64,000 nucleotides of DNA from Dehalococcoidia bacterium. Its GTDB lineage: Bacteria; Chloroflexota; Dehalococcoidia; DSTF01; WHTK01. The DNA lies in contig OZ240228.1 of NCBI GenBank assembly GCA_965197795.1, positions 813,128 through 877,127 on the forward strand, in the 5' to 3' direction. The notes beneath the pieces are model-generated. The model ran no database searches and had not been told where the DNA came from. It saw nothing but the letters and a program-made list of their open reading frames with translations. Position 1 is the first letter of the stretch. The number at the start of each line of letters is the position of its first letter. Positions 12,299-55,293 of the stretch are shown here, piece after piece. The translations under genes and the position numbers were made by a program.

Positions 12299-12672
12299 CG
12301 TGACGAACGGACGATCGCGCCGCGGCCGGGGTTCGATGAACGGCAGAGAGCGAAAGCTTGTCAGCGACCTCTCGCAGCCGAACTCAATGATGGCTGGGCG
12401 GACGAGGGAGATAGGGCAAAGAGCCCGAAAGGACCTCGAGAACCAGATCAACGCGGAGCCGTTCGAAGAACTGACGGATTCCGAGCTGAATGACTGGGAG
12501 CGGGATCAGGCCATCGCCAGAGAACGCATGAGGCGCGAGGGTCTGATCTGAGCTGATTTAGGTAATCGGGACAATCACGCAGGACGGATTGGAAGTTGTT
12601 CGACGCGAGCCAGCTTCCAGAATAGTCGGCTTCTTCTTAGCTTCTAGACGCGACTCACGATAAGCTAAGCGG

Positions 12673-13524
12673 GTGAACCAGGGCGCGATAATCGAAGCCG
12701 TGGCGTTCGACTGCTACGGCACGCTGATCGACTTCGGCGATGAGGCTTACATTCGCGCCTATGGCACCATCTGCCGTGATCAGGGCCTTTCGCTCACCGG
12801 CGAGGTGCTGTATCAGAAGTGGATGGAGATCTGGCGCCGGCTGGTCGATGACGGACGTCTGGCGGCCACAACCGACGCTGTTCCGGGGCCCAATACGCCG
12901 GGCGCGCTGAGTGAGACGGTCCAGATCCCACCGCATCAGCAGCACCACGCCGCCAGGAGCCGCAATCGCCCGATCGACGGGCCCGTGCCGCCGTTCCGTA
13001 GCTACCGCGAGGAGTGGACGGAGCATTTCGCGTTGTGCTTTGAGGAGCTCGGCGTGCAGGGCGACGCGGCGGCCGGCCACGAGCATCTGCGCCGAATGCT
13101 GGCGGAGGCGCCTGCTTTCGAGGAGGCGCTACGCACCGTCGAGACCATCGGCCGCAAGCTACCCGTGGCAATGATGTCGAACGCGGATGACGACTTCCTG
13201 TTCCCCGCGTTGGGCCGAAACGCCTTGACCTTCCCCGTCGTCCTGTCCTCCGAAGAAGCGCGCGCCTACAAACCACACCGGTCGATCTTCGAGCTACTTA
13301 GCGAGCGCCTGGGCGTTGCGCCGCAGAACATCCTCTACGTCGGAGATAGCCTGGTCGCCGACGTGAACGGTTCGAGGAACGCCGGCATGCGCGCTGCCTG
13401 GATCAACCGATCTGTTGATAGCAAGGACGCCAGCGACTGGGCCGGTATGGGACGTGATACGGCGGAGCCCGACTGCGAGGTCAGGCGCCTCGACGGGTTG
13501 ATCGAAGCGCTCGAGCTGCGATGA
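12673..13524 (+). CDS. HAD-superfamily hydrolase
   Basis: Motif I AVAFDCYGTLID and motif IV YVGDSLVADVNGSRNAGM. Confidence 0.65.
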   Translation: MNQGAIIEAVAFDCYGTLIDFGDEAYIRAYGTICRDQGLSLTGEVLYQKWMEIWRRLVDDGRLAATTDAVPGPNTPGALSETVQIPPHQQHHAARSRNRPIDGPVPPFRSYREEWTEHFALCFEELGVQGDAAAGHEHLRRMLAEAPAFEEALRTVETIGRKLPVAMMSNADDDFLFPALGRNALTFPVVLSSEEARAYKPHRSIFELLSERLGVAPQNILYVGDSLVADVNGSRNAGMRAAWINRSVDSKDASDWAGMGRDTAEPDCEVRRLDGLIEALELR

Positions 13525-14810
13525 AGCGAAAGACGGAACGTTCGCGGCAGGTCTTCGAGGAGGCCCAGCGTTATATGCCAGGCGGCGTCAACAGCCCCGT
13601 GCGCTCCTTCCGAGGCGTCGGCGGCGATCCCGTTGTCGTGGCGTCCGCAGCGGGTGCTCGGATCACTGACGCCGACGGCAATTCGTATATCGACTACTGC
13701 GGCTCCTGGGGACCGCTGATCCTGGGGCACGCGGACCGCGAGGTCGTCGATGCGGTCCAGCGAGCCGCCGCCAGAGGCTTGACCTACGGCGCCGCGACCG
13801 AGGCAGAGGTGGAGCTGGCTCGGCTCGTCTGCCAGTACGTGCCGTCGATCGAGATGGTGCGCTTTGTAAGCTCCGGTACAGAGGCGACGATGTCAGCGAT
13901 CCGCGTGGCGCGCGGGCATACCGGCCGCAGCAAGATCGTCAAGTTCGAGGGCTGCTACCACGGTCACGCCGACGGGCTGCTGGTCCAGGCCGGCTCCGGC
14001 GTCGCCACGCTCTCGTTACCGGATAGCGCAGGCGTGCCAGCCTCGTACGCAGGCGAGACGCTGGTAGCGCCCTACAACGATATCGAGGCCGTCAGCGCTT
14101 TGTTCGAGCGCTGGGGCGATGAGATCGCGGCGGTGATTGTCGAACCGGTCGCGGCGAACATGGGTGTGGTGCCGCCCGCCGCCGGTTTCCTCGAGATGCT
14201 GCGCACCTACTGCAGCGATAACGGGGCGCTGCTGATCTTCGACGAGGTGATCACGGGCTTTCGAGCCGGGCTCGGCGGGTACCAGGCGTATGCCGGCGTC
14301 ATGCCGGACCTCACTTGCCTGGGCAAGGTGGTGGGGGGCGGGATGCCCGTTGGGGCCTATGGCGGCCGGCGCGAGGTCATGCAGCAGGTGGCGCCCTTGG
14401 GCCCCGTCTACCAGGCGGGCACGCTTTCGGGCAACCCGTTGGCGATGGCGGCAGGCATCGCGACCCTGACACGACTGGCGCAACCAGACTTCTACGAGAC
14501 GCTGGACGCGAAAGCATCACGACTGGCGGATGGCATAGCGGCGGCGATTGCCCGCCATGAAGTTCCAGCAAGGCTCAGCAGGGTTGGCTCGATGATGACG
14601 CTTTTCTTCGCCGCAGAAGCCCCTCATGACTACGCGAGCGCACGCCAAGCCGACGCTCAGGCATACGCTCGCTTCTTCCACGCGTTGCTGGACGCCGGAG
14701 TGTACTTCCCGCCCTCGCAGTTCGAGGCGGCGTTCGTGTCGGCGGCGCACAGCGATTCGGACATCGACACGACGATCGCTGCGGTCGACGCTGCCCTTGG
14801 GGTGGACTGA
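13521..14810 (+). CDS. hemL: glutamate-1-semialdehyde 2,1-aminomutase
   Basis: YMPGGVNSPVR..R.VGG.P......G.R..D.DGN.Y.DY..SWGP...GH, with SGTEA and LIFDEV..GFR motifs. Confidence 0.9.
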   Translation: MKRKTERSRQVFEEAQRYMPGGVNSPVRSFRGVGGDPVVVASAAGARITDADGNSYIDYCGSWGPLILGHADREVVDAVQRAAARGLTYGAATEAEVELARLVCQYVPSIEMVRFVSSGTEATMSAIRVARGHTGRSKIVKFEGCYHGHADGLLVQAGSGVATLSLPDSAGVPASYAGETLVAPYNDIEAVSALFERWGDEIAAVIVEPVAANMGVVPPAAGFLEMLRTYCSDNGALLIFDEVITGFRAGLGGYQAYAGVMPDLTCLGKVVGGGMPVGAYGGRREVMQQVAPLGPVYQAGTLSGNPLAMAAGIATLTRLAQPDFYETLDAKASRLADGIAAAIARHEVPARLSRVGSMMTLFFAAEAPHDYASARQADAQAYARFFHALLDAGVYFPPSQFEAAFVSAAHSDSDIDTTIAAVDAALGVD

Positions 14811-15292
14811 TGGCGCGTTGGGCCGACGTAGAAGCGGCGGACGCCGGCTTCGCGGCCGCGGTGCGGTCTCTGTTCGACGCGCACGTCCACAAGGTCATGG
14901 CGACCATACGGGCCGACGGCTCGCCTCGAGTCAGCGGTATTGAAGTGACGTTCTCCGATGGCGACATTTGGTTCGGGTCGATGGCAGACGCGCGAAAGCT
15001 GGACGACCTGACGCGCGACCCGCGCCTCGCGCTGCACTGTACGCCGGACGACCCTCCGCCGGATCCGACCCTGTGGAGCGGCGATGCGAAGCTATCCGGG
15101 CGCGCTGAGGAGGTGGACGACACGGAGCGCCTGAAGTCGATGGGTGACGGTGGCGATGGCGCGTCTACCGGCCGCTTGTTCCACGTCGACCTAAGCGAGG
15201 TCGTCCTGACCAGGGTGGGGGACCCGCCAGACCATCTTGCCGTGACGCTCTGGACGCCGGAGGGCGGCATCAAACGTCTCCAGAGCCACTGA
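14810..15292 (+). CDS. pyridoxamine 5'-phosphate oxidase family (PPOX class, probably F420/FMN-binding) protein
   Basis: 160-aa ORF with PPOX split-barrel-like segments (MATIRADGSPRVSGIEVTF.DGDIWFGS). Weak assignment. Confidence 0.5.
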   Translation: MARWADVEAADAGFAAAVRSLFDAHVHKVMATIRADGSPRVSGIEVTFSDGDIWFGSMADARKLDDLTRDPRLALHCTPDDPPPDPTLWSGDAKLSGRAEEVDDTERLKSMGDGGDGASTGRLFHVDLSEVVLTRVGDPPDHLAVTLWTPEGGIKRLQSH

Positions 15293-15419
15293 CGGAGGGC
15301 TTCCCGCGGCGTTCGCGGCAGGGCTTGGACGGTTGATCGATTTTCGCTTGTCCGCGACTTCGAGCCGGTCTATACTTCCCTCAATCTTTAGTAAATTGCT
15401 TAGCTACGTGAGCGAATAA

Positions 15420-16553
15420 ATGAAAGTCACCTGCACTCAGGAAGCCCTTTCGCGCGGACTCAGCGTTGTTGGCAGGGCGGTCGCTGCACGCAGCACCCTG
15501 CCGATTACGTCTCACGTTTTGATCACGACTGAGGATGACGGGAAGCTACGCCTCTCGGCCACCAATCTCGAGATCACGATGAACTACTGGATCGACGCGG
15601 AGATAGGCGAGCCGGGTTCGGCGGCGGTGCCGGCGCGACTGCTGACCGACTTCGTAAACACGCTGCCGTCCGACCGAATCACGTTGGAGCTGTCGCCTCG
15701 GTCTCGACAGCTTAAGGTCGAGTGCGCGCGTAACGAGGCCCAGATCAGCGGCCTCGACGCGGAGGATTTCCCGCCCACGCCGGTCGTCCAGGACGGCATC
15801 GAAGTCCAGTTGGAGGCGAAAGGCCTGCGTCAGGCGATCGCTCAGACCGTGTTCGCAGCGGCAACGGACGATTCGCGGCCCGTGCTCACCGGCGTCGACA
15901 CGAAATTCGACGACAACCTGCTGACGCTGGCGGCCTCGGACGGATTCCGGCTTTCCGTCTACAAGCTGCCCCTGGCAGCATCGGTGGAAGCAACAGAGAT
16001 CGTCGTGCCATCACGCGCGCTCTCAGAACTGAGCCGTCTGCTGGCCGAGCAAGACGAAGCGGTGACGCTGCGAACGAACGCGGCGAAGACGCAGGTGCTG
16101 TTTCGCTTGGCCAACGCCGAAATGGTGGCGCAGCTGATTCAAGGCACGTTCCCCAACTTCAACCAGCTGATTCCGCCTAGCTCCACCAGTCGCGCCGTGG
16201 CGGAGGTGGGCGAATTCTTGCGCGAGACGCGGACGGCCTCGGTGTTCGCCCGCGACGGTTCTGGGATTGTGCGTCTCGTGGTTACGCCAGGGCAGGGTGT
16301 GACGCCCGGCAAGATCGTAATCTCGGCACGCGCCGAAGAAGTGGGCGATAACGAGGGCGAGATCGACGCGGCCGTCGAAGGCGAGGGCGTGAAGATCGCG
16401 TTCAACGGCAAGTACTTGCAAGACGTCCTGCAGGCCCTCGAGACCGGGCAGCTCGCGATGGAGACGACGGGTCCCTCCAGCCAGGGCGTCTTCAAGACGC
16501 TAGGAGACGACAACTACGTCCACGTCATCATGCCGATGTTCGTTCAATGGTGA
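15420..16553 (+). CDS. dnaN: DNA polymerase III beta subunit (sliding clamp)
   Basis: 377 aa with three-domain clamp signatures (LRLSATNLEI, TGVDTKFDDNLLTLAASDGFRLS, IAFNGKYLQDVLQAL). Confidence 0.85.
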   Translation: MKVTCTQEALSRGLSVVGRAVAARSTLPITSHVLITTEDDGKLRLSATNLEITMNYWIDAEIGEPGSAAVPARLLTDFVNTLPSDRITLELSPRSRQLKVECARNEAQISGLDAEDFPPTPVVQDGIEVQLEAKGLRQAIAQTVFAAATDDSRPVLTGVDTKFDDNLLTLAASDGFRLSVYKLPLAASVEATEIVVPSRALSELSRLLAEQDEAVTLRTNAAKTQVLFRLANAEMVAQLIQGTFPNFNQLIPPSSTSRAVAEVGEFLRETRTASVFARDGSGIVRLVVTPGQGVTPGKIVISARAEEVGDNEGEIDAAVEGEGVKIAFNGKYLQDVLQALETGQLAMETTGPSSQGVFKTLGDDNYVHVIMPMFVQW

Positions 16554-18086
16554 TAAACCGACGCGAGGTTTTGGGACCTGCGAGTCGTCCAATGGCAGCA
16601 CTCCGGCAACCGTCGCCCGCTCCTGGGTCGCCGTCACGCTGACCTGGAGCGCTTCCAGAATCTGCTCGCGGTCGCGCTCGCTGGCTCGATCGAGCCAGGC
16701 TCCGACCGCCGTGCAGGCCGAGTGCAATGCCGCTTCGTCCATGGCTCCGTAGGCTGACGCGTCTAGTGGCTGTAGCGACTTGAGCCGCTCGGTGATCACC
16801 TCCTGCTGCCGCCGGATGTCGGCCAGTTCAGTCTCGACCACGTCCTCATTGACTTCGCCGTAGCCGAACAGGCGCACGAGCCGTGCCTCCCGCTTCTTGA
16901 GCGATTTGAGCTGGGCGTCTAGGCGACCGGCCTCTTCGGGGTCGGTGTCGGAGTCCGCCGAGCGTGTGAGCTCGCGAAGCACCACCTCCGGCGAGGCGAG
17001 CAGCCGCCGCATCTCGGTCCAGGCTCCCGCCTCCAGGGCGTCGGCCCTCACGTAGCGCCCCGAGCATTCGCGCCCGGTGTTGGTGTCGTAGGAGTGGTGG
17101 CAGCGATAGTAGCTGTACTCGCGCCCCTTGCTCTTAAGCGTCTGGCCGACCATGGCGCCGCTGCAGATCCCACAGCGGGCCCGCCCGCCCAGAGCGTAGT
17201 GGCGGTGGGTGCCCTGCCGCCGCGCTCGCTCCGGATCATGGAGGATCGTCTGCACGCGGCGCCATATGGCGGCGTCGATGATCGGGGGCGAGGCTCCGGG
17301 TACCGCAATGTGCTCGTCGAGCGGTCGCTCGATGACCTCGCTGCGGCGCCGGCCGTTTGCGGCGCGTGAGCTAACGCGCTTTGTGCGCCGGTAGACGGTG
17401 TGGCCGGTGTAGGTCTCGTTTGTCAGCACGCGCCGGATGGTGAGCGGGTACCAGCGGCCACCGGCCAGCGCCGGGATGGCAGCCTCGTTAAGCTCGCGTG
17501 AGACCGCCGAGAAGCTCCTCGTCTCGGAGTAGCGCTCGAAGATGCGCCGCACGACGGTCGCCTGGAACGGCTCGAGCTCGCGCTGACCCGTTGCCTGCTC
17601 ATAGGTGTAGCCATAGCAACCGGCTCCGGTCCCCTGCGGCAGGCGGCCCGACCGCGCCCGCTCCACCTTGCCGCGCATTGTTCGCTCAGCAATCTTCTCC
17701 CGCTCGAACTCGGCGGCAAACGCCTTAACCGATCGCAGGAGCTGACCCGTCGCGGTGTCCTCGAAGTTCTCGGTCACGAACTGAAGAGAGACTCCACGCT
17801 CCTCCATCTCCTCGACGAGGATGGCTACGTGAGTCTGCTTTCTGCTGAGCCGGTCAAGGGCATAGGAGAGGACCACGTCAACCATCGCCTTTGCGGCCAA
17901 GGCCCGAACCTCGGTTAAGCCAGAACGCTCAAGACTGAATCCGCTGGCTGAGTCCCTAACAGTCCCCTCCACCGTCCAGCCATTCTTCTCGGCCAGCGCA
18001 AGACAGGCCCTCTCCTGGGTATCGAGCGAGGTGCCTTTACGTTCCTGAGCATCGGTTGAAACACGGCTGTAGATCACGCACTGCAT
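16500..18086 (-). CDS. large serine recombinase (serine integrase)
   Basis: N-terminal resolvase catalytic domain MQCVIYSRVSTDAQ...SLDTQ. Recombinase domain and zinc ribbon (CGICSGAM...YYRCHH) follow, with a coiled-coil C-terminus. Its 3' end overlaps the dnaN 3' end by 54 nt on the opposite strand. Confidence 0.85.
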   Translation of the reverse strand: MQCVIYSRVSTDAQERKGTSLDTQERACLALAEKNGWTVEGTVRDSASGFSLERSGLTEVRALAAKAMVDVVLSYALDRLSRKQTHVAILVEEMEERGVSLQFVTENFEDTATGQLLRSVKAFAAEFEREKIAERTMRGKVERARSGRLPQGTGAGCYGYTYEQATGQRELEPFQATVVRRIFERYSETRSFSAVSRELNEAAIPALAGGRWYPLTIRRVLTNETYTGHTVYRRTKRVSSRAANGRRRSEVIERPLDEHIAVPGASPPIIDAAIWRRVQTILHDPERARRQGTHRHYALGGRARCGICSGAMVGQTLKSKGREYSYYRCHHSYDTNTGRECSGRYVRADALEAGAWTEMRRLLASPEVVLRELTRSADSDTDPEEAGRLDAQLKSLKKREARLVRLFGYGEVNEDVVETELADIRRQQEVITERLKSLQPLDASAYGAMDEAALHSACTAVGAWLDRASERDREQILEALQVSVTATQERATVAGVLPLDDSQVPKPRVGLSPLNEHRHDDVDVVVVS

Positions 18087-18113
18087 TGATCCCTCGAATC
18101 CTCACTCTTCCAA

Positions 18114-18347
18114 TCAACGAGGCCGGCTGCCGCGACGCCGCCAGTCTTCGAGTTCCTTCTTCGCATTTCTGCCGCCAGGGCCGAATCTATGGCGACTCAG
18201 GAACTCGGGAACTCCTCCGTATTCAAGAAGAATCACTGCGGATTCGGCCACCTTGTCATGACCGGCCAGAAAGAAAGAGCCACGGCGGGCCTCCTTGCCA
18301 CAACCACACCAGCAATACCCGGTCGGGATCAAACGTTGGCCTGTCAT
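18114..18347 (-). CDS. small Cys-rich hypothetical protein (GYCWCGCG...FLAGHDK)
   Basis: ATG at 18347 preceded by AAGG. The short zinc-ribbon-like motif resembles small accessory ORFs of recombinase modules. Confidence 0.3.
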   Translation of the reverse strand: MTGQRLIPTGYCWCGCGKEARRGSFFLAGHDKVAESAVILLEYGGVPEFLSRHRFGPGGRNAKKELEDWRRRGSRPR

Positions 18348-18396
18348 CCTTGAACCTCTTTCTTGAATTGTATGCAAGCATGCTATCCACGCCACG

Positions 18397-19395
18397 TCAA
18401 GCGTCTCGGGCAGCATCAAGGGCTTCTTGTGCATGAAGCTGATCATGCCGATGAAGCATCCGGTCAATGGATGCGGCACGGCGTCGCCCTAGTACTAGTC
18501 GGATCGAATGGTCGTCAAAGTCCATGCTTCGCAACCATGCGGCAAGCGTGGCCACTAGTTGCGGACGAGTCGCCTTCGGCCAGCCTGCAAGCACGCAACT
18601 TGCCCGGAGACTATCCCGGAAGGCTCTTTCTGAGAGTCCTGCGTCGGAAGGACGACCTCGAAGGACGAAGGCATCTCGGTCAAGCCCGGAAGCCAGTCCG
18701 TGCTTCAGCAGCGACTGCGCACCTGGTCCGACCACGAAGACAGTAACCCGATGCCCTCGCCGCATGACCTTAGCTTCCCAATACGGGGTCAGGCCGTCAT
18801 CGTGCCACGTTAGGTCTCGCCATCTGAGCTCACACATCTCCTTCACATCGATCCCGCTAAAACATGCCAACGCAGCAATTGCACCTGAGATCGGGGTCCG
18901 GGTGATCCCGGCATTCAAGATGTGCTCCAAGGCGTCGGCAGTTGGTGTTGGCCCCGGCATGCGTCGCCGACTTCTGGAGCCGGGTACGGACACGCCCGCG
19001 TCGTACCAGCCCTTGACCGCTTTCTTGGGAAGAGCAGCCTGGAACATCCGCACTCGCTGGCGCCCAAGGTAAGGCGATACACCCATCATGAGGAATCGCT
19101 GAAAGGCGCGGATGCGCGTGAGTACGGTGGCCATTCCAAGCCCCTTACTCGCCTTCTCAATTAGCATCGCGGCCGCCTCGGGATCGCCACGGAGTTCTCG
19201 AAGGCTGACGCTGGTCAATTCCTCCGACAGACGCGCAAGACTCCGAAGCTGAGAAACCTCCGAAGCTACCGTAGAGGCTGCTCCGCCCAGGTCTCTGCGC
19301 CACGTCTGGAAGACAGACAACTCTTCAAGGGATGGAACAGACAGCGGGACCGCAGGGCCAGGTTGGAAAAGTTTCCCTTGAGCATCCATGCTCAC
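18397..19395 (-). CDS. tyrosine-recombinase-like protein (no catalytic Tyr found in its C-terminal region); second gene of a tandem pair
   Basis: 332 aa. Its start overlaps the upstream recombinase stop by 4 nt. It has an integrase-like fold with R..H..R-like residues but no C-terminal Tyr. Possibly a degenerate or accessory paralog. Confidence 0.45.
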   Translation of the reverse strand: MSMDAQGKLFQPGPAVPLSVPSLEELSVFQTWRRDLGGAASTVASEVSQLRSLARLSEELTSVSLRELRGDPEAAAMLIEKASKGLGMATVLTRIRAFQRFLMMGVSPYLGRQRVRMFQAALPKKAVKGWYDAGVSVPGSRSRRRMPGPTPTADALEHILNAGITRTPISGAIAALACFSGIDVKEMCELRWRDLTWHDDGLTPYWEAKVMRRGHRVTVFVVGPGAQSLLKHGLASGLDRDAFVLRGRPSDAGLSERAFRDSLRASCVLAGWPKATRPQLVATLAAWLRSMDFDDHSIRLVLGRRRAASIDRMLHRHDQLHAQEALDAARDA

Positions 19396-20669
19396 TTCAT
19401 CTCCACCAGCACCGTGGGAAGTTGGGCTGGACCACCGTTTTCAGGGGCAGTCGAGAGAGACGACAATCGAGTCCTTAGGCGCGTCAAGGACGGCTGAACA
19501 TAGTGATCGTCCATTCGGCGCGGACTGGTCCAGTTACCAGCCAGCGAAGCGACTGAACGCGAAACGAGCGTCGTCGCGAGAGTTGCAAAAGCCCTTCTAT
19601 AGCCGTGAGCGGTGAATGCCTCAACACCAGCCTGAGAACACGCGACAGCCAAATCCCTCGACCATTGTCGGTATGTCCAGGCCCCCGCCGTTATCCGTCT
19701 CCAGAAGGGGCCAGGCACACCAAATCCGATGCGCTCCGAATGAACAAATGCCCTTGCCCACGTATTGAAGGCCACGACATAGGCCTCCAACGCATCGAGA
19801 GCGGCCTTCGGCACGGCCACCTCGAAGGGCTGGACGGAACTCTTTGCCTTGAGGATCATGCGGCCTTGACCATTAGGAAGCCTGTGCAAGTCAGCGCCGT
19901 CTAGTCGAAGGAGGGCACCTATTCGTAGACCTCGATCCGCCAGTAGGCACAGTAGCGCCTCGTTGCGGGAGCCAATCCAGCCCTCACCGCGACTCAGGAC
20001 ATGCCGAACCGCTTCGGCCTCGTCGGGCGTGGGCATTCGGCCTCCACGACCACGAGACCAGCCAACGGGCAATCGGTAGCCGGTTCCGACTAACTCGGCG
20101 ACCTGTTGGAGAGCCTGATCGACATTGCCCGCTGGTTGGGGCAAGCCGAACTGTTTGAGCTCGACCTCCATCAGGAGTGCGAATGCTCGAGCCACACTGC
20201 GTCTCTGGGAAGCGAGCCATGCTGTAATGCTCCGTCCGCCATCTGACGCCATTCCACTAGCCAAGGTCTTTCCCAGTAGATCAAGGTCCGAATAGAACCT
20301 AACCAATGAGACCGGCTCGCCCAGGAGCGTTGTCGCAAGCATCAGCGAATCACGCAGTACCCAGGAGTATTGCCGAACTGTCGCCGCTGTGAAGCGGTTG
20401 GCGACCCGCCTGCCAAACTCCGCAATGAGCGCTGCGTCGTCTGCAGGTAGGCTGGCCACCCGCCCAGTTCGTCGCTTGAGGTCCCGTGACTCAGCGCCGC
20501 AACCTGGTAGAGCCTGCTGAACGTCAGTGCCGATCTTTGCAATCTGTTCGTCTAAGTCGACTGCCGATCTTTGCTTAGTAGTTTCCGTGTCAAGCTGCGA
20601 CCAGAATGTCTCGGTGTCTTCCGCAGAACGGCAACCAAGAAGGGGTTGCGCTGAAGTCGGCGCCTTCAC
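19392..20669 (-). CDS. tyrosine recombinase/integrase (true start probably downstream of 20669)
   Basis: C-terminal catalytic motifs AHGYRRAFAT...LAGNW...DHYV (H-x-x-R ... Y). An N-terminal SAM-like core-binding region is present. Repeat unit occ1 lies within the 5' region annotated by the ORF track. Confidence 0.7.
   Translation of the reverse strand: MKAPTSAQPLLGCRSAEDTETFWSQLDTETTKQRSAVDLDEQIAKIGTDVQQALPGCGAESRDLKRRTGRVASLPADDAALIAEFGRRVANRFTAATVRQYSWVLRDSLMLATTLLGEPVSLVRFYSDLDLLGKTLASGMASDGGRSITAWLASQRRSVARAFALLMEVELKQFGLPQPAGNVDQALQQVAELVGTGYRLPVGWSRGRGGRMPTPDEAEAVRHVLSRGEGWIGSRNEALLCLLADRGLRIGALLRLDGADLHRLPNGQGRMILKAKSSVQPFEVAVPKAALDALEAYVVAFNTWARAFVHSERIGFGVPGPFWRRITAGAWTYRQWSRDLAVACSQAGVEAFTAHGYRRAFATLATTLVSRSVASLAGNWTSPRRMDDHYVQPSLTRLRTRLSSLSTAPENGGPAQLPTVLVEMK
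20525..20581 (-). repeat. bipartite repeat unit, copy 1 (reverse orientation, degenerate B half)
   Basis: cagtGCCGATCTTTGCAATC-[14]-GACTGCCGATCTTTGCTTAGTAG, compared with reverse-complement unit GACTATCGATCTTCGGAGTC-[13]-GACTGTCGATCTTTGCTTAGTAG. Confidence 0.6.
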
Positions 20670-20847
20670 GAACTGGTCTCATTGTCTAAGTCTCGGATGG
20701 AGACTTCGGCAAAGATACGGCGCCACAACTCCAGCCAGGCAGGGGTCAGTTCTGGGACTGCTTGCCAGTCCACTTGCACAGCAATGGCGCTCACCCTCGG
20801 CTTGGCCGAACGTGGACAAGGGTCTGACGGGTGGTGTTCGCTCATAC

Positions 20848-21009: not shown

Positions 21010-22185
21010 CTAAGTGGTTATCTTCCACTCGATGGCTTCTTCGGGCTCATAGGAGAAGCTGGCGCCACGTTTAACTGAGTGCTTCAAGTGACTCGCGAGG
21101 GCTGGCAAGATATCCGCAAGCTGATCCTCGACTCGGTCGAGGGCATGAGAGATGCTTGTGCGCGCCTTCTCCGCTGGCCCTTGAACGCGGCGAGGCCGGC
21201 TCCCGAGTCCAATGACCTGCCTTAGTTGTTTCTGCAATGACGACAGCTCATCCTGCTCCTCATTGGAGAGCAGCCCGCTTCTCTTGCGGGCGTCTAGCTC
21301 GGCAATCCGTCGCTGGTAGTCCCGTCGGGCATCCGTGTCTATGACCTGATCGGACTCCATTTCATCTATTCTCAATTCATCGTCGTGACTTGGCAGCGAG
21401 CCGGCTGACGGACCCGATAGGGCCAGCAGCTCGAGAGCACCGATCCTCTTGCCGGGATTGGCGAGCAGATGGGACAGATACGCCAGCCCGACATAGTTCC
21501 GGACCGTCTTGCTTACACCCGTCCATGTGGCGGTCCAGTGTTGGCCGGATTTCACCAGCGCGTACCCAGGGAGCGTCTCCAAGCGACCGAACTCCGGGAT
21601 CTCTACTGATAGTCTTGCGTCTTGCTCACGAAGCATCGCCGGCAGCGAGCACACTCTGCCTGCCAGCCACTGGGGCACGTCCTCGCTCAGAACCACGAAG
21701 AGCGCTTGCTTCCGCCCGCCACTCGGCGCGAATAGCGCCGGTGCATCCGGCCAGCCCACACCCCTGAGGAGATGCACCTCCAGACCTTGACTGGAACCTA
21801 GACTCCAGTGGCGCCCGCGCATTGCTTCACGAGGGGTCCTCCCTGTCTCCAAGACGCGGACAAGTTGTGCCGCGATGCCTTCGATGGAGATACGCCAGCG
21901 CTTTAGCAGGATCGCGTCCAATTCAACCCTGCCGTTCAGGGGGCAGTAGATGTAGGCCGGAGCGCCGTCTTCGCCGAAGGTGACAGTTTCTGAATGAGGC
22001 TCGTCGCATTCGGTGCAGCTCACTCGTGATTGGGACCCGGTCGGTTCTAGCAGGCCTAACTCCGCAAGCGACCGGACGGCGCCTTCCGGCCAGCTTTGGG
22101 TCTCGTCGCCCAGAACCAGCTTCGGGGTATCTCCTGGAAGGTCAGCCCGAATCAACAGCTCGGTCGCAATGTCGATCAGTGTCAC
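21010..22185 (-). CDS. hypothetical protein (391 aa, Cys-x2-Cys zinc-ribbon-like N-terminus, coiled-coil C-terminus); first gene of an uncharacterised two-gene operon
   Basis: No family recognised. The C-terminal ~85 aa are paralogous to the fragment at 58765-59000. Confidence 0.5.
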   Translation of the reverse strand: MTLIDIATELLIRADLPGDTPKLVLGDETQSWPEGAVRSLAELGLLEPTGSQSRVSCTECDEPHSETVTFGEDGAPAYIYCPLNGRVELDAILLKRWRISIEGIAAQLVRVLETGRTPREAMRGRHWSLGSSQGLEVHLLRGVGWPDAPALFAPSGGRKQALFVVLSEDVPQWLAGRVCSLPAMLREQDARLSVEIPEFGRLETLPGYALVKSGQHWTATWTGVSKTVRNYVGLAYLSHLLANPGKRIGALELLALSGPSAGSLPSHDDELRIDEMESDQVIDTDARRDYQRRIAELDARKRSGLLSNEEQDELSSLQKQLRQVIGLGSRPRRVQGPAEKARTSISHALDRVEDQLADILPALASHLKHSVKRGASFSYEPEEAIEWKITT

Positions 22186-23387
22186 ACGCCTACTAGCTCC
22201 CCGATGACACGCTCCAGATTGGACTCCGTAAGAGCCTTCCTAATGATCCCGTCGATGCCCTCGTGGTCGAGAAGGCACCCATTTCGAGCAAGGGTGAAAG
22301 TCTTCGTTCTTCCGCGTCGCTTCTTGCCAATCGGTCGGAACTGAGCCTGGAGTTTCACCCGCTCAACATCCATCAAGAAGAACGGGTATTTGTCCGTGGC
22401 CTCGCCTGGGACCACCGACCAGTACCGGCTTGCCACGTTGAGGACGCCCTTTCCAGGTGGCCCTCCAACCTCAACTGTTACGCTGCGTCTTCCGTCCCTA
22501 TCCCTGACATTCACCCACTTCACCTCGATACTTTCGAGTCCAGTGGGTGGATCGATGTAAAACTCGAAGGACTCGTCCTTCAGGCGATTGAGGTCATAGA
22601 TGGTCGCGGGGCCTCCGTCAGGCGGAAGGTTCATCCCCATCGCGACGATTCCAAACAACTGCTGGAGGTCTCTTACCTTCTTCTTGGTCCCCTGACAGAA
22701 GACCTCCAAATTACCCGTGTCGGGGCAGTAGAAGAAGAGCAAATCAGAAGCGGGCCGAATTTTCCGCCTAATCAACTCATCGGCCGCGTATTCGAGGACC
22801 GTCGTACCGAAGTCTTCGGGGTACGCGAGAAAAAGCGTGCCAGTTGCCCGCTCAAGGTGCTCGACCTGACAGTGAGAGCCACGTCCTTCCTCGCGCAGTA
22901 GATAGGCGGTGAGCTCGCTCGAGAGTCTCTTGATGACTGCGGCGCCTGTACTCGGGTGAAGGTCTTTCCCGATGAAGCGGCGCCGCCAGTATCTGCCATT
23001 AAGGGTATCTGCGGCTCGGAAGCGCACCAAGTCTGCGAATAGCTCTGGCCACTTTAGCAGTAGCCACAGGGCAGCGTCGTAGCTGCTTTCCAGAGCCGTG
23101 AGAACGTCTGTGAGGTCGAGCTCTCGCGCCTTTGCTTCCTGATAGATGACGTGCTGGCCATCATCATCAGCGAGGTCATAAACATCTTGGAGGTCCTGCT
23201 CCACATCAATCCGCCTGTCCGGAGGAAGGTCTTGAATGGCCGCACCTAAAGCTTCAACGTCACACTCGTCTTCCTCCAGGAATTGCTGGCCAAGAAACAG
23301 GTCCCGAGAAAGGAGGTACTCTCGGAGGAGATTCCACTCGAATTGACGCAAGACTCCTTTAGTTGAAAACGCATAGCGGTGACTCAT
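22182..23387 (-). CDS. hypothetical protein (401 aa), translationally coupled (4-nt overlap) to the downstream 391-aa gene
   Basis: Long clean ORF with no recognisable motifs. Its stop overlaps the start of 21010..22185. Confidence 0.5.
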   Translation of the reverse strand: MSHRYAFSTKGVLRQFEWNLLREYLLSRDLFLGQQFLEEDECDVEALGAAIQDLPPDRRIDVEQDLQDVYDLADDDGQHVIYQEAKARELDLTDVLTALESSYDAALWLLLKWPELFADLVRFRAADTLNGRYWRRRFIGKDLHPSTGAAVIKRLSSELTAYLLREEGRGSHCQVEHLERATGTLFLAYPEDFGTTVLEYAADELIRRKIRPASDLLFFYCPDTGNLEVFCQGTKKKVRDLQQLFGIVAMGMNLPPDGGPATIYDLNRLKDESFEFYIDPPTGLESIEVKWVNVRDRDGRRSVTVEVGGPPGKGVLNVASRYWSVVPGEATDKYPFFLMDVERVKLQAQFRPIGKKRRGRTKTFTLARNGCLLDHEGIDGIIRKALTESNLERVIGELVGV

Positions 23388-26046: not shown

Positions 26047-27633
26047 TCAGGGCAAGTCAAGGACGGAGTCGAACTCTTCCCTTACTTTCATATCCGGCGT
26101 AATCAACTTAGCGAGTACATCTGCCGAAAACTGCGAGGGGTTTTCTCCGATCCCTTCGGTGTCGCCCAAGACACTCTTCGCAACATCGAACACTACACCC
26201 AGGGCTCCTTTCGCCGACCCGTTCGGACGAATCGCCCCATCGCGGGCTACCTTGAGTTGATCGGCCGCGTTTTCTACGCGGGAGCCTCGATCGCCTACCA
26301 GTGCATCAAGAACTTCGTCATCTAGAAGGTACGACTCCAAGGAGTGGCGTTCGAGCACTCTTAGATTCGGATCACTCTTGAGTAGGCGGGTACGGTTCTC
26401 TGGAGTAAGGTCATCGCGGTCGCGCAACTTTAGAAGACGCGTCCCTGGCGCAATCACCGAAGCTATCTGAGCCGCCTGTTCAAGCTCGCCCTTGCCCCCG
26501 CTGGACTTGAACTCCACCCGTGGGTGCAGGTCACGGAAGACCTGCCGGTATATCCGTTCGTCCCACACGGGAACTCGGTCACTCACTTGGCTCCCCTCGC
26601 AAATAACCAGAACCTCTGGAGCGAGAAGCCTAGCCAGATCGTCCAAGGCAACGGACATCGCCTCACGCAGGAGTTGGCCTGAGGGCTGGGACGGCTTGAG
26701 TTGGACATCTGGGGCTGGCCCCTTGACCTGTCCGAAATCCAAGAAGGCAACCCGGCCGGGCTCGGCGGTGGACATGTCGAACGCTCTACGGATCATCCCG
26801 ACAGAGTGAGTGGCGATCCACAACTGCGATCCATCTGGGAGAAGCCGTATGAGCTCAGTGAGCACAGAGGCCTGCACGGCGGGGTTGAGGTGGATCTCAG
26901 GCTCGTCAAGGCAAATCAGGGGGGTGCCCAGCTCTGTCGCCGCAATGTGGACATCCAACAGCAGGTCGAAAACGGCCTTCTCCCCGCCGGAGAGGCTCTC
27001 GTATCGGAATCGTCGGATGTCGTCCCTAGTAAAGTAGAAAGAACCGTTCGATGTAGCATCCCCCAACCCCGTGAAACGCAAATGCGGCAACACGCGTGTG
27101 AGAGAGTCTTGCACTGGCGCCAGCGTGGCCCTAACCGTCTCAAGGTCTCGAACGGCATCACTGCTCTCCAAGTTCGATAGGACCGGAACGAAACTCGCGA
27201 CGAGCCGCTGATAGTGCTCACCGAGAGCTTCGTCTGTCTCGACCATGCGGTCGAAGGATTCACGGCTGCGAAAGTCTTGCTGTCTCTCGATGGAATTCGC
27301 CAATACGTCTGGAGTATTTCTGTGGGCAGTTCGCACATGAACGAGCGGACCCAAGGGTTCTGAGGATCCAGAATCATCACCGTCGTGCAGGGTAACCTCA
27401 GGTCTGCCAAACGTGCCCGTCTCAGAATCGAAATAGTCACCGGAAAAGCCTCTACTCATAGTTCTGCCTTTGTGCCGTGCCCATTCAAGAAACGCGTCAA
27501 AGACGGAAGACTTGCCCGTCCCGTTCGGGCCGAGCATCACCACGAGTTCGACGTCGACACCTAGCGCCTGGATCCCTAAAGAACCGAAGCGCTTGAACTT
27601 GCTGGGAATCCTGACTTCCGATACACGCATGAG
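26047..27633 (-). CDS. OLD-family (or fused PARIS-like) ABC-ATPase + Toprim nuclease
   Basis: Start MRVSEVRIPSKFKRFGSL...VMLGPNGTGKSSVFDAF (Walker A). ABC signature LSGGEKAVFDLLL and Walker B LICLDEPEIHLNP. C-terminal Toprim: VLVICEGSQVSDRVP...LKLRDRDDL. Confidence 0.75.
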   Translation of the reverse strand, partial: LMRVSEVRIPSKFKRFGSLGIQALGVDVELVVMLGPNGTGKSSVFDAFLEWARHKGRTMSRGFSGDYFDSETGTFGRPEVTLHDGDDSGSSEPLGPLVHVRTAHRNTPDVLANSIERQQDFRSRESFDRMVETDEALGEHYQRLVASFVPVLSNLESSDAVRDLETVRATLAPVQDSLTRVLPHLRFTGLGDATSNGSFYFTRDDIRRFRYESLSGGEKAVFDLLLDVHIAATELGTPLICLDEPEIHLNPAVQASVLTELIRLLPDGSQLWIATHSVGMIRRAFDMSTAEPGRVAFLDFGQVKGPAPDVQLKPSQPSGQLLREAMSVALDDLARLLAPEVLVICEGSQVSDRVPVWDERIYRQVFRDLHPRVEFKSSGGKGELEQAAQIASVIAPGTRLLKLRDRDDLTPENRTRLLKSDPNLRVLERHSLESYLLDDEVLDALVGDRGSRVENAADQLKVARDGAIRPNGSAKGALGVVFDVAKSVLGDTEGIGENPSQFSADVLAKLITPDMKVREEFDSVLDLP

Positions 27634-27753
27634 TTCTGGTCCTACACCCACCCGAAAAGGGGCCCCTCTGTCACGCTCTCGGTCTGGTCGACGTATTCGT
27701 CGGCATCCCCGTTGGCTGCGCAATTCTTCAATCGCGACACCACTCGACAAGGA

Positions 27754-29939: not shown

Positions 29940-30320
29940 TCAAGTAGATAATCCCCGTTTTTTGAGGACCAGCACCTCCAGCGACGGCTCTGCCACCAGC
30001 TGCTGCAGGCGCTCGTTGTCGCGCTTGAGGCTCGCCACCTCCAGCTGCGTGGCGTCGCGCACCGTCTCGGCTGCAAGCCTCGTCTTGCCAGCCTCCATGA
30101 ACTCCTTGAGCCAGGCGTAGTAGACGTTGGGGTTGATGCCCTCCCGGCGGCAGAGGTCTGACACCCTGGTCTCGCGCCGGAAGCCCTCCAGCACGACGCG
30201 GACCTTCTCCTCCGCCGTGAACTTGCGCCGAGTCGTCCGACGCACTTGCTGGATGAATTGCCGCGTCTCGTCCTCGACCGGCATCGCCTCAGCGGCTGGA
30301 ATCCTGCGCATCCTCGGCAT
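29940..30320 (-). CDS. IS3-family transposase OrfA (HTH); no OrfB present
   Basis: MPRMRRIPAAEAMPVEDETRQFIQQVRRTTRRKFTAEEKVRVVLEGFRRETRVSDLCRREGINPNVYYAWLKEF is a typical IS3/IS911 OrfA. Confidence 0.7.
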   Translation of the reverse strand: MPRMRRIPAAEAMPVEDETRQFIQQVRRTTRRKFTAEEKVRVVLEGFRRETRVSDLCRREGINPNVYYAWLKEFMEAGKTRLAAETVRDATQLEVASLKRDNERLQQLVAEPSLEVLVLKKRGLST

Positions 30321-30525
30321 GTCTCGCTCCTTCTGCCGACGGTAACCTACCGCCACTACAGGAAGCCAGAGCAACCTCAGTCATCCATTAACAATTGCTA
30401 ACTCTGTGTCCGGATTTCGCTGACGGGGAACAGTGCAAGCCAGCGACCAAAGTCTCCATTAGAAATCAGGCCGAAAAGTCCGGATTTCGCCGAAGACGTA
30501 CAGCAAGAGTCCTCGCTGTTCAGGA
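29940..30525 (-). mobile_element. IS3-family remnant (orfA plus left-end IR beginning TGAACAGCG...); orfB is deleted
   Basis: The minus-strand end at about 30525 begins TGAAC, and two GTCCGGATTTCGC direct repeats lie in the leader. It ends 2 bp before repeat unit copy 2. Confidence 0.5.
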
Positions 30526-30527
30526 CC

Positions 30528-30581
30528 GACTATCGATCTTCGGAGTCTGGCGATCGCCCTGACTGTCGATCTTTGCCTAGT
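30528..30581 (-). repeat. bipartite repeat unit, copy 2 (reverse orientation)
   Basis: GACTATCGATCTTCGGAGTC-tggcgatcgccct-GACTGTCGATCTTTGCCTAGT. Nearly the exact reverse complement of copy 5 (47899-47954). Confidence 0.8.
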
Positions 30582-31286
30582 CTCCTCGGTCCACTAACGT
30601 TGGTCTCGCGTGCCGCTTCGTACGAACTCCGTAAGTCGTCCAATTCAACGCATGTGATTCGGTGTGCACACGGTTCACCCGTGTAAGCGTAAGGAGGGAC
30701 ATCGCGCCCATCCGGGGCATTGTCAGTCTTATTCTGATTACACTTCTCGCACAGCAATTGCAAGTTAGTGAGTTCCGAGTGACTTCTTATCGGTATGATG
30801 TGATCCACCGTTAGCTGGTCCGTAGAGTACATGAGCTTATCGCACCTGTTGCACACCAGACCTTGCTTGTATGCAAGCAAGGTCTTCGCTTGGAATTTCT
30901 TGGGGGTGTTTATCCATCTCTGTAACTGGTGATGTGGCAGCTCATTACCGTCGACTTTGTCGTTAGATCGCTTTTTAATATCATCGATTAGGTCGTCGAT
31001 AGTGTGGTAATTGGTACCATCCAAAAGCTCACTGAACATCTCATCGAGTACTCTGGCAACCTCGCTGAACCGCTCGCCAATGCCTCGCATTGAGGCCAAA
31101 GCTTCTGTTTGAGGCAGACTGTTTGAGCTTGGACTAGAGTCCGCGTCCAGGTGAAGGATCGTGCTTTTTTCACCGCAGTCTTCGCATTGCTCAACGGTAG
31201 TAAAGCTTCCGCGGTTAGTCTCCCTCCTGTCGATTTCTTTCCATCTATGAATAACTTGGACTTCGTGCATGGAGCTTTTGTTCATT
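30530..31286 (-). CDS. HNH endonuclease (lower-GC gene); its C-terminal ~18 codons are encoded by the repeat unit
   Basis: HNH motif DHIIPIRSHSELTNLQLLCEKCNQNK. GGAGAGG RBS before the ATG at 31286. The C-terminal LGKDRQSGRSPDSEDR is the translation of repeat copy 2. Confidence 0.7.
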
Positions 31287-31974: not shown

Positions 31975-32082
31975 CATGTCGTTTCAGTCGCTTTCCCCCG
32001 ACGACGCGGTGGCGGGGGAGCAGACGCGCAACACGACCAACCTGTTCGACGGGTTCTTGCCACCCCGGACTCGGCGCCGCGA

Positions 32083-32138
32083 CTACTAAGCAAAGATCGA
32101 CAGTCCCGCAGGAACCCGGACTCCGAAGATCGATAGTC
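32083..32138 (+). repeat. bipartite repeat unit, copy 3 (forward); start of a 297-bp segment near-identical to 48721-49016
   Basis: CTACTAAGCAAAGATCGACAGTC-ccgcaggaacccg-GACTCCGAAGATCGATAGTC. Confidence 0.85.
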
Positions 32139-32337
32139 TAGCCGTACAAGGTGGTCTGCTTTGGTCTAGGCGAAGACATGGCGTTACCCATCGAAAGCCA
32201 CCGCCGTGACCAGAGCCGAGCATACCGTTCCAGTCACTCGACTGCGAGCTAGCGCGGCAAGACAACGGTCAGCTCGAAGGGATAGCCTTTACTCGCCACC
32301 GCACGAACATGGTGGAGTGTGCACCTAGTGAACAGGC

Positions 32338-32655
32338 CTAGCGTCTCCCGAAGCCCCCGTCGTGCAGTACCGTCTTGCGGCTATGGCAGGTCTGGCACAG
32401 CGCCCGCAGGTTGTCAGCGGCATCGGTCCCACCTCGAGACAACGGCCGGATGTGGTCAATCACCGTAGCCCTGGCGCCGCAGGCTATACAGCGTGGTTGA
32501 CGAGCCAGCACCCTGCGGCGAAGGCTTTGCCACGCGGAACCGTAGCCTCGGCGCGCTGTTGTGGGACGCTGTGCCTGGTGAGCCAGGCAGCGCGCCGACC
32601 GCGTGAGCACGGTGCAGCCAGGCTCAGAACAGGGCGCGGGCAGCCGGCGACGCAT
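32338..32655 (-). CDS. phage-type HNH endonuclease (copy 1)
   Basis: CxxC ... HIRPLSRGG ... NLRALCQTCH. 105 aa. A paralog (~85% identical) is at 48975..49298. Confidence 0.7.
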   Translation of the reverse strand: MRRRLPAPCSEPGCTVLTRSARCLAHQAQRPTTARRGYGSAWQSLRRRVLARQPRCIACGARATVIDHIRPLSRGGTDAADNLRALCQTCHSRKTVLHDGGFGRR

Positions 32656-33011
32656 GGCCGAAGTATAGCGATGGAGGGTTTGGAGCCAACTCCTGAATCT
32701 GAGGTGGAGGGTTTTCAGGAAGTACTAGTAGACACCCAGCCTCCTAGTGATCGCGAGGCCTTTCCGCAGAACGATCCACAACCCTCCACACCATCCATGG
32801 CGGCCCGCGAAAAAGTTAAATCAGGCAATCCTTCCGACCGCGCAAAACCCGTCTTTCATTTTTCCGAAAAAACAGGGGTTGGTTTGGCACCCCGCCGGGC
32901 GGCCGTTTCGAGTCTGGCTCCGGGCGGATCAGACTCAAAACGTGTTTGGCACAAATCGGCAAGTTTTGTGCAAAAACAGGCCAAAAAGTGCACACCGCCG
33001 AGCAGGCGCCC

Positions 33012-33393
33012 ATGACTAGCGGGCGGATACCGAAGCAGAACGCCGACCGTCTGACGACGCATTCGTCGGAGGTCAACGAGGAGCTGCGGCTCCCCGGCAA
33101 AGTGCGTGCCCGGCAAGGTGCACCCACCGGCGGCTCCGGCCCACTGGCCGGAGAACGCACAGAAGTGGTATCGCCTGCTCCGGCGGTCGGGGCAAGCCGC
33201 GCTGCTCGACTACAGCGATTGGGCGCTGGCTTTGGCGGGCGGAGCTTCGAGAGATCAGCGCCGGACCCGACACGATTGGCGCGAGGATCGCTTCGCTTGC
33301 TCAATTGGTGTCAATGCCACGATCTCCCTGACCGCTCCTCATCAAGGTCAAACCGCTCTCCGGAAGCGTTGCCGGTCGCTGTCAGGGCCGTGA
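33012..33393 (+). pseudogene. phage terminase small subunit remnant (frameshifted by a 16-bp tandem duplication near 33100 and diverged at the 3' end)
   Basis: MTSGRIPKQNADRLTTHSSEVNEELRLPGKV matches the intact copy at 49511. ggcaaagtgcgtgccc is duplicated. The downstream frame gives HPPAAPAHWPENAQKWYRLLRRSGQAALLDYSDWALAL, then unrelated sequence. Confidence 0.5.
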
Positions 33394-34084
33394 CCCTCGC
33401 CCTCGAACGGGACTCCCCAGGAATTGCCTCTGCGCCGGGCGTGCACTCGGCGAGCACGGGGATGAGCGTCCTCAGGTGCGGGGTCAAGTGCGCCTCGTCC
33501 AGCAGTACCAGGCTATCGGTCCCCGCCATGGCGGCGTCTATTGGGCGCAGTGTCGATCCATAGCCGCGAAACAGGAGCCGTGAGCCGTACATCGGCAACG
33601 TACACAGGAGGACCGTCGGGCGTGACGGGTCGGCCGGCGCCCGCGAGGCGACTCCCCCGCGCAGCCGGATTACATCGAGCGCTGGTGCGGCTGGCAGGGC
33701 AGAAAGGGAACTGAGACGCTCCGCGACTCCGCCGAGAACATCTCTGGCATGTCCCGAGAGGCCGGCCGAACCGGGATCCGCGAGCACCTTCGCAAGTCTC
33801 TCGGCGTGTTCTGCGGTTGAGTCCACCAATAGGCGCCGGTTGACGACCCACCAAATACGGGTCGGTGCTGTCCGTTGCGCTGGCTCCCGATCCGCCTGCG
33901 ACGCAAGCCACCACACCGCGATGTCCAGGCACGCGGTCTTCCCTGCGCCTGTCGGAACGCCAACCTCTGCGGGCCACTCCTCGGTCTCAGCGACCCGTTC
34001 GGCCAAGCGCGCCTGCCAGGGAAAGGGCTCGCGCCCATTGATCGACCAGTAGAAGTCAGCGAAGGTCGGCGCGGGAGCCATCAT
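33311..34084 (-). pseudogene. cas3: Cas3 helicase (type I-G/I-U style, no N-terminal HD) N-terminal fragment of about 258 aa
   Basis: FADFYWSINGREPFPWQARLAERV...VGVPTGAGKTACLDIAVWW (Q motif and motif I). ...LRGG...TVLLCTLPMYGSRLLFRGYGSTLRPIDAAMAGTDSLVLLDEAHL matches the Cas3 helicase core. The ORF stops after ~258 aa where the terS remnant begins. Confidence 0.55.
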
Positions 34085-45601: not shown

Positions 45602-45689
45602 CCAGCTGTCCCATGTTCATGCAGGACGGGCCCGAGAGCCGAACATTGTTAGAATTCCCCAGCAGTACCCTCGCTACAGGTGGTAAGAG

Positions 45690-46436: not shown

Positions 46437-46438
46437 GA

Positions 46439-47755: not shown

Positions 47756-47796
47756 CACTTGCCCTCTAGAGGGATAATTTAGCTCTAAGCGAGCCA

Positions 47797-47818
47797 CATG
47801 TCGATCTTTGCTTAGTAG
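47797..47818 (-). repeat. repeat unit half-copy (reverse A half only), copy 4
   Basis: aTGTCGATCTTTGCTTAGTAG, 78 bp upstream of forward copy 5. The two form a short inverted pair. Confidence 0.6.
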
Positions 47819-47898
47819 CGCGTCACCTTCAGAGTCAACGGGCGTGGAGATAGGCGTCGGAGCAATCTGGTCGGGGGGATTCGTATCTCGTGGAAACA

Positions 47899-55277: not shown

Positions 55278-55293
55278 GCCCGTGACGACAGCG

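Follow-up and report, generated by a model that had tools for sequence, protein, structure and literature searches.

A candidate recombination site inside a tyrosine recombinase gene, and the gene's catalytically dead paralog, beside dnaN in Dehalococcoidia-like Chloroflexota

Multi-recombinase modules in which one protein has the tyrosine recombinase (YR) fold but lacks its catalytic residues, such as GInt and SE, are known mainly from Proteobacteria and are poorly understood. The locus described here is a recombinase operon from an uncultured Dehalococcoidia bacterium, in a 64,000-nt stretch of contig OZ240228.1 (positions 813,128 to 877,127, forward strand; assembly GCA_965197795.1). This stretch is referred to below as the window, and coordinates are counted from its first letter. 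The operon extends the dead-partner theme to Chloroflexota and adds a serine recombinase to it. Within the 5′ part of its YR gene lies one copy of a repeated DNA element, which is read here, with a probability of about one half, as the recombination site of the YR and its dead paralog (YRL), similar to res and IRS sites and acting as a hot spot for the exchange of defence-gene cargo. The candidate site is clear, with two frozen half-sites, natural recombinant junctions in metagenome-assembled genomes (MAGs), and a clade-specific A/G variant that tracks YR/YRL, and it provides a directly testable substrate for the role of a dead recombinase paralog. It also hints at how dnaN-side defence islands assemble in organisms without a genetic system.

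Described systems and the layout of the operon

GInt comprises GinA, GinB, GinC (which lacks catalytic residues), and GinD, and SE comprises IntA, Tfp (which has no RHRY set), IntB, and Srap, in the order intA-tfp-intB-srap. Tn554 encodes TnpA and TnpB, both with RHRY, plus TnpC (SE and GInt papers). RIT elements are defined by three consecutive YR genes, all with the catalytic Tyr. In the TnpI/IRS systems of Tn4430 and Tn5401, as in the res sites of resolvases, a site of about 100 bp adjoins the recombinase gene and consists of a crossover core and, on the gene side, direct accessory motifs; such sites are hot spots of mosaic exchange between elements. In SPbeta, the recombinase-fold repressor MrpR binds the repeated element SPBRE, and the serine recombinase SprA excises the phage (PMC10516654).

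The operon contains five co-directional open reading frames (ORFs) on the minus strand between 16500 and 20845, as given by the ORF list:

20666-20845, minus strand: ORF-U, 59 amino acids (aa); its stop overlaps the YR start by GTGA; conserved motif WQxxPxxxAWxxxWxRIF
19392-20669, minus strand: YR, catalytically intact tyrosine recombinase, 425 aa as annotated
18397-19395, minus strand: YRL, YR-fold paralog without ArgI, HisII, ArgII, HisIII, and Tyr, 332 aa
18114-18347, minus strand: small Cys-rich ORF, 77 aa, motif CWCGCG...GHDK; ATG at 18347
16500-18086, minus strand: large serine recombinase, 528 aa; converges on dnaN (15420-16553, plus strand)

The YR and YRL ORFs also overlap by GTGA, and YRL is translationally coupled to the YR gene, whose true start codon is uncertain. 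The ATG of the small ORF is preceded by an AAGAGG ribosome-binding site. The 528-aa protein is a large serine recombinase by domain test, with Resolvase, Recombinase, and Zn_ribbon_recom domains (Pfam E values of 3e-33, 3e-21, and 1e-9, all passing the cut-offs) and a match to the PHROG 95 integrase at 2e-107; the 3′ end of its gene overlaps the last 54 nt of the convergent dnaN. Near 18 kb of the window, the G+C content drops from about 0.65 to about 0.59.

The operon resembles Tn554 in its tandem YR genes followed by a small protein and in its site-specific insertion. It differs in that both Tn554 YRs carry RHRY, whereas the second protein here does not, and in that Tn554 has no serine recombinase. 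In place of the RIT trio there are two YR-fold genes, one without the Tyr, and a third recombinase of the serine type; no inverted repeat comparable to the 34-bp terminal inverted repeats of RIT brackets 16500-20700. The Tn554/RIT-like arrangement proposed by an earlier, sequence-only reading is therefore not borne out, since Tn554 needs two active YRs and RIT needs three plus terminal inverted repeats. The tandem YR-family genes and small ORF on which that proposal was built are real, to which ORF-U and the serine recombinase overlapping the dnaN 3′ end, both missed at the time, must be added. NCBIfam gives just weak XerC/D matches for the window recombinases.

GInt and SE share more with the operon, namely (i) a co-transcribed, overlapping recombinase operon at the edge of variable DNA, (ii) a YR-fold protein without catalytic residues (GinC, Tfp) together with a small accessory protein, and (iii) a site at or over the 5′ end of the first gene. 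They differ in having two active YRs instead of one, no serine recombinase, cargo downstream rather than upstream of the operon, and hosts among the Gamma- and Betaproteobacteria. With its single active YR, its dead paralog, and a small ORF whose family varies, the operon departs from the definition of both; no similarity to GInt or SE proteins emerged in general searches, which included no direct comparison with them.

In the layout of its site, the module resembles the res and IRS sites beside resolvase genes. In contrast to TnpI/IRS, the site lies within coding sequence, the partner is a dead paralog, no inverted core is recognisable, and there is no transposase. With SPbeta the module shares a non-catalytic YR-fold protein, a short repeated DNA element, and a large serine recombinase; however, no active YR is encoded beside MrpR, and the SPBRE copies are intergenic operators that are not known as recombination breakpoints. 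By these definitions, the module is not Tn554, RIT, GInt, SE, or an integron (compared below), yet it has the dead-partner theme in common with GInt and SE.

A DNA-level site within coding sequence

The 21-nt motif ACTAAGCAAAGATCGACAGTC occurs in seven copies in the window against 0.00 expected, and the half-site AAGATCGRYA in 12 copies against 0.33 expected, all of them within repeat units. A full unit reads ACTAC|TAAGCAAAGATCGRCAGTC, followed by a spacer and then AAGATCGRYA. The half-sites of copy 1 (AAGATCGRCA) are direct repeats, 34 bp apart from start to start. The two words are translated differently within the YR gene, the first as TTKQRSAV and the second, in another frame, as AKIG, so that GCAAAGATCGGCA is used in two frames. 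Codons were aligned for 13 loci, with YR identity down to about 40%; pairwise difference at third positions is 0.00 for T-K-Q-R-S and I-G/D, against a mean of 0.57 elsewhere in the gene and 0.69-0.78 at invariant residues such as L54, R65, and T70. The repeat is a DNA-level site and not a protein motif. Nonetheless, at 15 of 16 loci no stop interrupts the frame between the motif and the catalytic domain, and the stretch between the words and the catalytic domain varies chiefly at third positions; therefore, the site sits inside translated or translatable sequence.

The same open frame and coding-typical variation downstream of the motif could be taken to mean that TTKQRSAV...AKIG serves the recombinase as a functional peptide at its N-terminus and that the other repeats are decayed gene fragments. 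This is very improbable: synonymous positions are frozen in both words, one DNA word is used in two reading frames, residues 1-70 of YR are predicted to be disordered, and orphan sites whose spacer breaks the frame keep both words at 84-97% identity between genomes. The sequence-only reading had placed a TKQRS-encoding repeat at the N-terminus of the protein; the location is right, at codons 30-47, and what is conserved there is the DNA.

The copies in the window, together with a gene remnant that accompanies the last of them, are as follows:

20528-20582, minus strand: copy 1, YR-linked site, ACTAC|TAAGCAAAGATCGGCA, 24 nt, AAGATCGGCA; codons 30-47 of YR
30503-30584, minus strand: copy 2, orphan of type O2, half-site spacing of 23; right part cut by an IS3-family remnant
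32082-32217, plus strand: copy 3, orphan of type O1; a 74-bp fragment of a terminase large subunit (TerL) gene (32006-32079) abuts its left edge
47796-47819, minus strand: copy 4, first half-site alone; divergent from copy 5, with the Dcm methylase ATG 63 nt downstream
47898-48024, plus strand: copy 5, orphan of type O2
48720-48854, plus strand: copy 6, orphan of type O1, spacing of 22
58105-58239, minus strand: copy 7, hybrid site; left flank and first half-site as in the YR-linked site of locus L007, spacer and right part of type O1
58409-58576, minus strand: P0012-type ORF-U remnant upstream of copy 7; severed 5′ end of a former operon

The orphans fall into three types (O1, O2, and O3), each 84-97% identical between genomes over about 80-135 bp, with unrelated flanks, and those outside any ORF retain both half-sites. 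The remnant that sits in the right part of copy 2 (29940-30503, HTH_Tnp_1 orfA) is 98.5% identical to an insertion sequence (IS) in L086. Similarity at a TerL pseudo-site at 50363 was too weak to count.

No hairpin is conserved in the site: RNAalifold on 14 sites returns a consensus of -1.66 kcal/mol with 4 trivial pairs, on which result a conserved RNA or single-stranded DNA structure was rejected. This bears on the likeness to integrons, in which, as here, a YR lies beside a primary site and further sites bracket variable, mostly co-oriented genes. Integron-like features end there, as the sites show no attC-like fold, the cassettes are multi-gene and of mixed orientation, and the YR has no IntI model match. 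A search of the site for a sigma-70-like promoter or an intrinsic terminator found neither. When viral and metagenome collections were scanned for the motif, about 70 matches came up, of which two (L070 and L081) have the second half-site; the remainder are chance matches.

Breakpoints, reassortment, and the proposed mechanism

Relatives of the module occur in MAGs of Dehalococcoidia and Tepidiformaceae. None was found in phage collections, and a scan of 72,556 plasmids gave one weak cyanobacterial integrase as its sole match. The order dnaN, serine recombinase, small ORF, YRL, YR, site, variable DNA is seen in eight loci with enough flank (L001, L002, L005, L006, L007, L008, L083, and the window). 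The exceptions, L084 and L086, have no dnaN, and at L003 no dnaN match lies in the 10 kb downstream that were checked. Most loci have an ORF-U homolog immediately 5′ of the YR gene, namely L007, L083, L084, L086 (both modules), L087, L088, and L089. Wherever an intact YR gene occurs, it directly adjoins the site.

Several junctions end at the outer edge of the site. The window and L008 are 87% identical over 12654-20582, and identity stops at exactly that edge; L008 has the window arrangement minus 733 bp between two ACTAC sequences, a deletion whose junction connects ...CGACGGGACTAC, within the 391-aa gene, with TAAGCAAAG of the site. L083 has two further fusions: an O2 orphan meets a truncated IS transposase gene, intact in L088, at ...GGGACGACTAC|TAAGC (GACTAC), and an O1 orphan meets a fragment of a QueC-like gene, intact in L086, at ...GCGTGAC|TAAGC. 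In the window, the 74-bp TerL fragment beside copy 3 matches 50290-50363. Four truncated genes are joined to the site at AC|TAAGC. Nine further orphans bracket variable genes in L083, L086, L087, L088, and L089; they have the same orientation as the YR-linked site and are situated 2-3.5 kb upstream of it.

Copy 7 preserves a recombinant within the site itself. Its left flank is 95% identical to L007 over 820 bp, including the ORF-U remnant and the 3′ end of the L007 404-aa gene, and the copy changes from L007 type to O1 type within the common core. The ORF at 58174-58527 is an N-terminal YR remnant that matches P0012 residues 1-94 at 68% identity (tblastn), which agrees with the gene remnant, lacking the remainder of the gene, that had been noticed there from sequence. 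Copy 7 is what would be expected if an O1 site and a directly oriented P0012-type YR-linked site had recombined to delete the DNA between them, an event by which the older recombinase genes would also have been lost.

Comparison among loci shows that the YR/YRL part has been reassorted independently of the serine recombinase. Between the window and L007, dnaN is 93% identical, the serine recombinase 94%, and YRL and YR 50% each; the corresponding values are 93%, 97%, 98%, and 96% for L008, and L083 is 76% identical in dnaN and 93% in the serine recombinase. The half-site variant, GGCA or GACA, tracks the YR/YRL clade and not the type of serine recombinase. Covariation of the half-sites as independent proof of binding was rejected as too clade-dependent, because mixed GGCA/GACA sites exist in L083 and L086.

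Together, these observations suggest that a family of integrative elements in Dehalococcoidia-like Chloroflexota uses this locus as its recombination module. The serine recombinase would most likely anchor the element at the dnaN 3′ end. The active YR, with the dead YRL as its putative DNA-binding partner, would act on a double-stranded site, about 55-135 bp long and overlapping the 5′ part of the YR coding sequence, that would comprise a crossover point at the outer edge (AC|TAAGC) followed by the two direct AAGATCGRCA repeats 34 bp apart. Recombination between two sites, or between a site and a pseudo-site, would delete, swap, and possibly invert the neighbouring cargo, which is mostly anti-phage, and every such event would leave orphan sites at the joints. 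What the sequences show directly is the DNA-level constraint on the site, the lost catalytic residues of YRL, the conserved gene order, and the precise junctions; both the protein that binds or cuts the site and any present activity of the window orphans are inferred.

Several observations weigh against this proposal. The usual inverted-repeat YR core is not recognised in the site, the half-sites of which are direct. Left flanks of the sites have only (G/T)AC in common, with no conserved left arm, and not every break in homology falls at the site, some being 258-450 bp upstream of it. The junctions show 2-5 nt of microhomology, which could also come from non-enzymatic deletion. Spacing is 22-23 nt in orphans against 24 nt in every YR-linked site, where the reading frame may fix it. 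The window orphans are of the GACA type, whereas the resident site is of the GGCA type; these orphans may be relics of a former P0012-type module and not substrates of the resident proteins. No excised circle or structural variant was seen. The mismatch in type also qualifies the earlier suggestion that the repeats belong with these recombinases: they are tied to the recombinase family, and the window orphans, being GACA (P0012) type, have a historical and not a direct link to the resident genes.

Where conservation begins and ends can also be read differently, with the stretch from the site to the serine recombinase as a compact, transposon-like unit in the style of Tn554, GInt, or SE, the motif as its left terminus, the orphans as solo ends of older copies, and the variable DNA as mere neighbourhood. 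SE and GInt operons do start right at attL and contain a YR-fold protein without RHRY and a small protein, and conservation here is confined to the operon side of the junction. L086 and L084 moreover have two modules tail to tail without dnaN: those of L086 have none between them, and in L084 two YR pairs converge on one serine recombinase. Against such a unit, ORF-U, a conserved operon member, would lie outside the supposed left end, the independently reassorting parts would not form one unit, there would be no cargo, no right-end repeat was found, and no similarity to annotated plasmid- or phage-borne recombinases is detectable. It is considered quite unlikely. Where dnaN would be expected in L086 (12561-15624), convergent genes for two serine recombinases of different types, with 49% and 91% identity to the one in the window, share a 110-nt overlap; the arrangement is either a genuine tail-to-tail pair of elements or an artefact of assembly.

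A more far-reaching version of the recombination-site proposal can be sketched, although as a whole it is unlikely. In it, the module would be a Chloroflexota platform for cassette capture, analogous to integrons and mechanistically distinct from them, in which a heteromeric YR, consisting of an active subunit and an obligate dead paralog, uses a double-stranded site in its own coding sequence to take up, excise, and shuffle multi-gene anti-phage cassettes beside dnaN, and the serine recombinase moves the platform between hosts. A search for a displaced dnaN 3′ end, which would have marked where the island stops on its far side, found none.

The YR/YRL pair and the small ORF

YR is a divergent member of the tyrosine recombinase superfamily with the full R-K-H-R-H/W-Y set on a Cre/Xer-type fold. 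Its match to PF00589 (Phage_integrase) is weak, at 5.6e-5 and under the Pfam cut-off; it matches PHROG integrase families at 8e-8, and its predicted model resembles Cre, XerA, and XerD (Foldseek, E of about 1e-8). The searches yielded 25 homologs, and R249, K276, H355, R358, W380, and Y390 are invariant or nearly so across 21 sequences, in line with the full R-H-R-Y set first noted in the 425-aa gene.

YRL is a paralog of YR (hhalign probability of 96%, E of 1.3e-9), and the two have in common an unusual linker, G-x-x-x-P-x-G...R-x-R-x-x-G-P-x-P. Its model (pLDDT of 85) has the two-domain YR fold, with XerA, Cre, and XerH as top matches. It lacks the marks of an active enzyme, the Tyr and the RHR triad, while keeping the fold: there is no Tyr beyond residue 205, and alignment to the XerA profile places D183 at ArgI, P278 at HisII, V281 at ArgII, R304 at HisIII, and M313 at the Tyr. 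The family is represented by 29 close homologs and, in a profile search, by 189 cluster representatives at E<=1e-10. The Tyr column of 94 full-length relatives holds L in 67, M in 12, and Y in 1 (L or M in 79 of 94), and ArgI is kept only by distant relatives. With all five catalytic positions lost in YRL and the family columns in agreement, the observation of a dead paralog therefore holds family-wide, which confirms the reported absence of the catalytic tyrosine from the 332-aa protein and makes the suggested regulatory or architectural role reasonable. HSIR was ruled out as the HxxR box of YRL, and the C-terminal register of the YR/YRL hhalign alignment was set aside, because in the XerA alignment the HxxR position corresponds to TRPQLV, and the box is gone. 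A distant YRL (P0054) likewise follows an active-looking YR, with no serine recombinase close by.

The family-wide loss of catalytic residues also suits the main rival account, in which the repeat is an operator and YRL a dead-recombinase repressor of the MrpR/YopR kind that binds it upstream of transcription units of the element, its own operon included, while the serine recombinase alone integrates and excises. The recombinase-fold repressors YopR, MrpR, and SroF are among the fold matches of YRL, although MrpR/YopR-type matches rank 36-44 and the resemblance is weaker than to XerA or Cre. SPbeta offers the precedent of MrpR on repeated SPBRE copies in a phage excised by a large serine recombinase, direct-repeat half-sites fit a repressor, copy 4 sits 63 nt from the Dcm start codon, and the orphans of other loci are all oriented like the operon. 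This account leaves unexplained the intact, conserved YR at the site, the four gene truncations exactly at AC|TAAGC, and the hybrid copy 7; the lack of a sigma-70-like promoter at the site and the convergent HNH gene that follows copies 3 and 6 also speak against it. As a substitute for a recombination site, an operator is a tentative and less likely option, and the two roles may coexist.

The small ORF is real and occupies a variable slot; it is not a defining member of the module. Its homologs follow YRL in just three related loci (L001, L084, and L085), the slot of the P0012 clade holds a 54-57-aa protein that, from sequence reading alone, has a ribbon-helix-helix look, and the second module of L084 has a third protein family there. 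What had been described as a 78-aa CxxC protein after the pair is a genuine ORF of 77 aa whose motif is CWCGCG...H and not CxxC, and it is not constant in the module.

Variable DNA and neighbouring features

The variable DNA of relatives is rich in defence genes, with type I, IIG, and ISP restriction-modification, QueC-like, PIN, and HEPN genes. That of the window contains the Druantia genes DruE/DruF/DruK, an AriA-like ATPase, and a Dcm/EcoO109I restriction-modification pair. The Druantia-like system (35238-44805, minus strand) is near-complete, with DruE of 1793 aa (1630 bits), DruF of 1025 aa (502 bits), and a DruK-like PD-(D/E)XK nuclease of 420 aa. A type II restriction-modification module at 44909-48103 comprises an HhH-GPD glycosylase-like gene, an EcoO109I-like endonuclease (45690-46436, plus strand), and a Dcm C5-methylase (46439 to about 47735, minus strand). 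At 26047-27750 (minus strand) lies a 567-aa AAA_21/OLD-like ATPase with AriA/AriAB (PARIS-like) matches, neighboured by a 490-aa protein with RNase H and helicase domains. A conserved gene pair of 391 and 401 aa (21010-23387, minus strand; the second is PHROG 37634), directly upstream of ORF-U, is also present in L007 at 67-69% DNA identity.

Two decayed phage packaging modules (32338-33563 and 48975-50979) encode an HNH endonuclease and a Terminase_7 small subunit, with large-subunit fragments in the second only. Each starts right after an O1 orphan, and their first 300 bp are 97% identical between copies. The block at 53415-56828 (minus strand) holds a 124-aa ORF that reads like HTH_17/Xis, a 387-aa zinc-finger/Toprim-like protein, and a 620-aa P-loop protein, labels taken from sequence reading; the latter two have no Pfam or PADLOC matches. 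The block resembles a replication/excision-like part of another integrated element, and the C-terminus of the 124-aa ORF (AWDALWREIL) resembles the ORF-U motif.

Scans of the whole window found no tRNA and no Rfam match. A 49-nt direct repeat (59898-59946 and 62145-62193, 86% identical), around which G+C falls to 0.54, reads in reverse complement like a tRNA 3′ end (GGTTCGATTCTCCCCCGTCTCCACCA); no complete tRNA is called by ARAGORN, and the repeats may be att scars of a tRNA-targeting island. A further direct repeat of 86 nt, which begins TTTTGGGATC...GAATCTGAGCG, lies at 51777-51862 and 63787-63872, its two copies being 78% identical and 12 kb apart.

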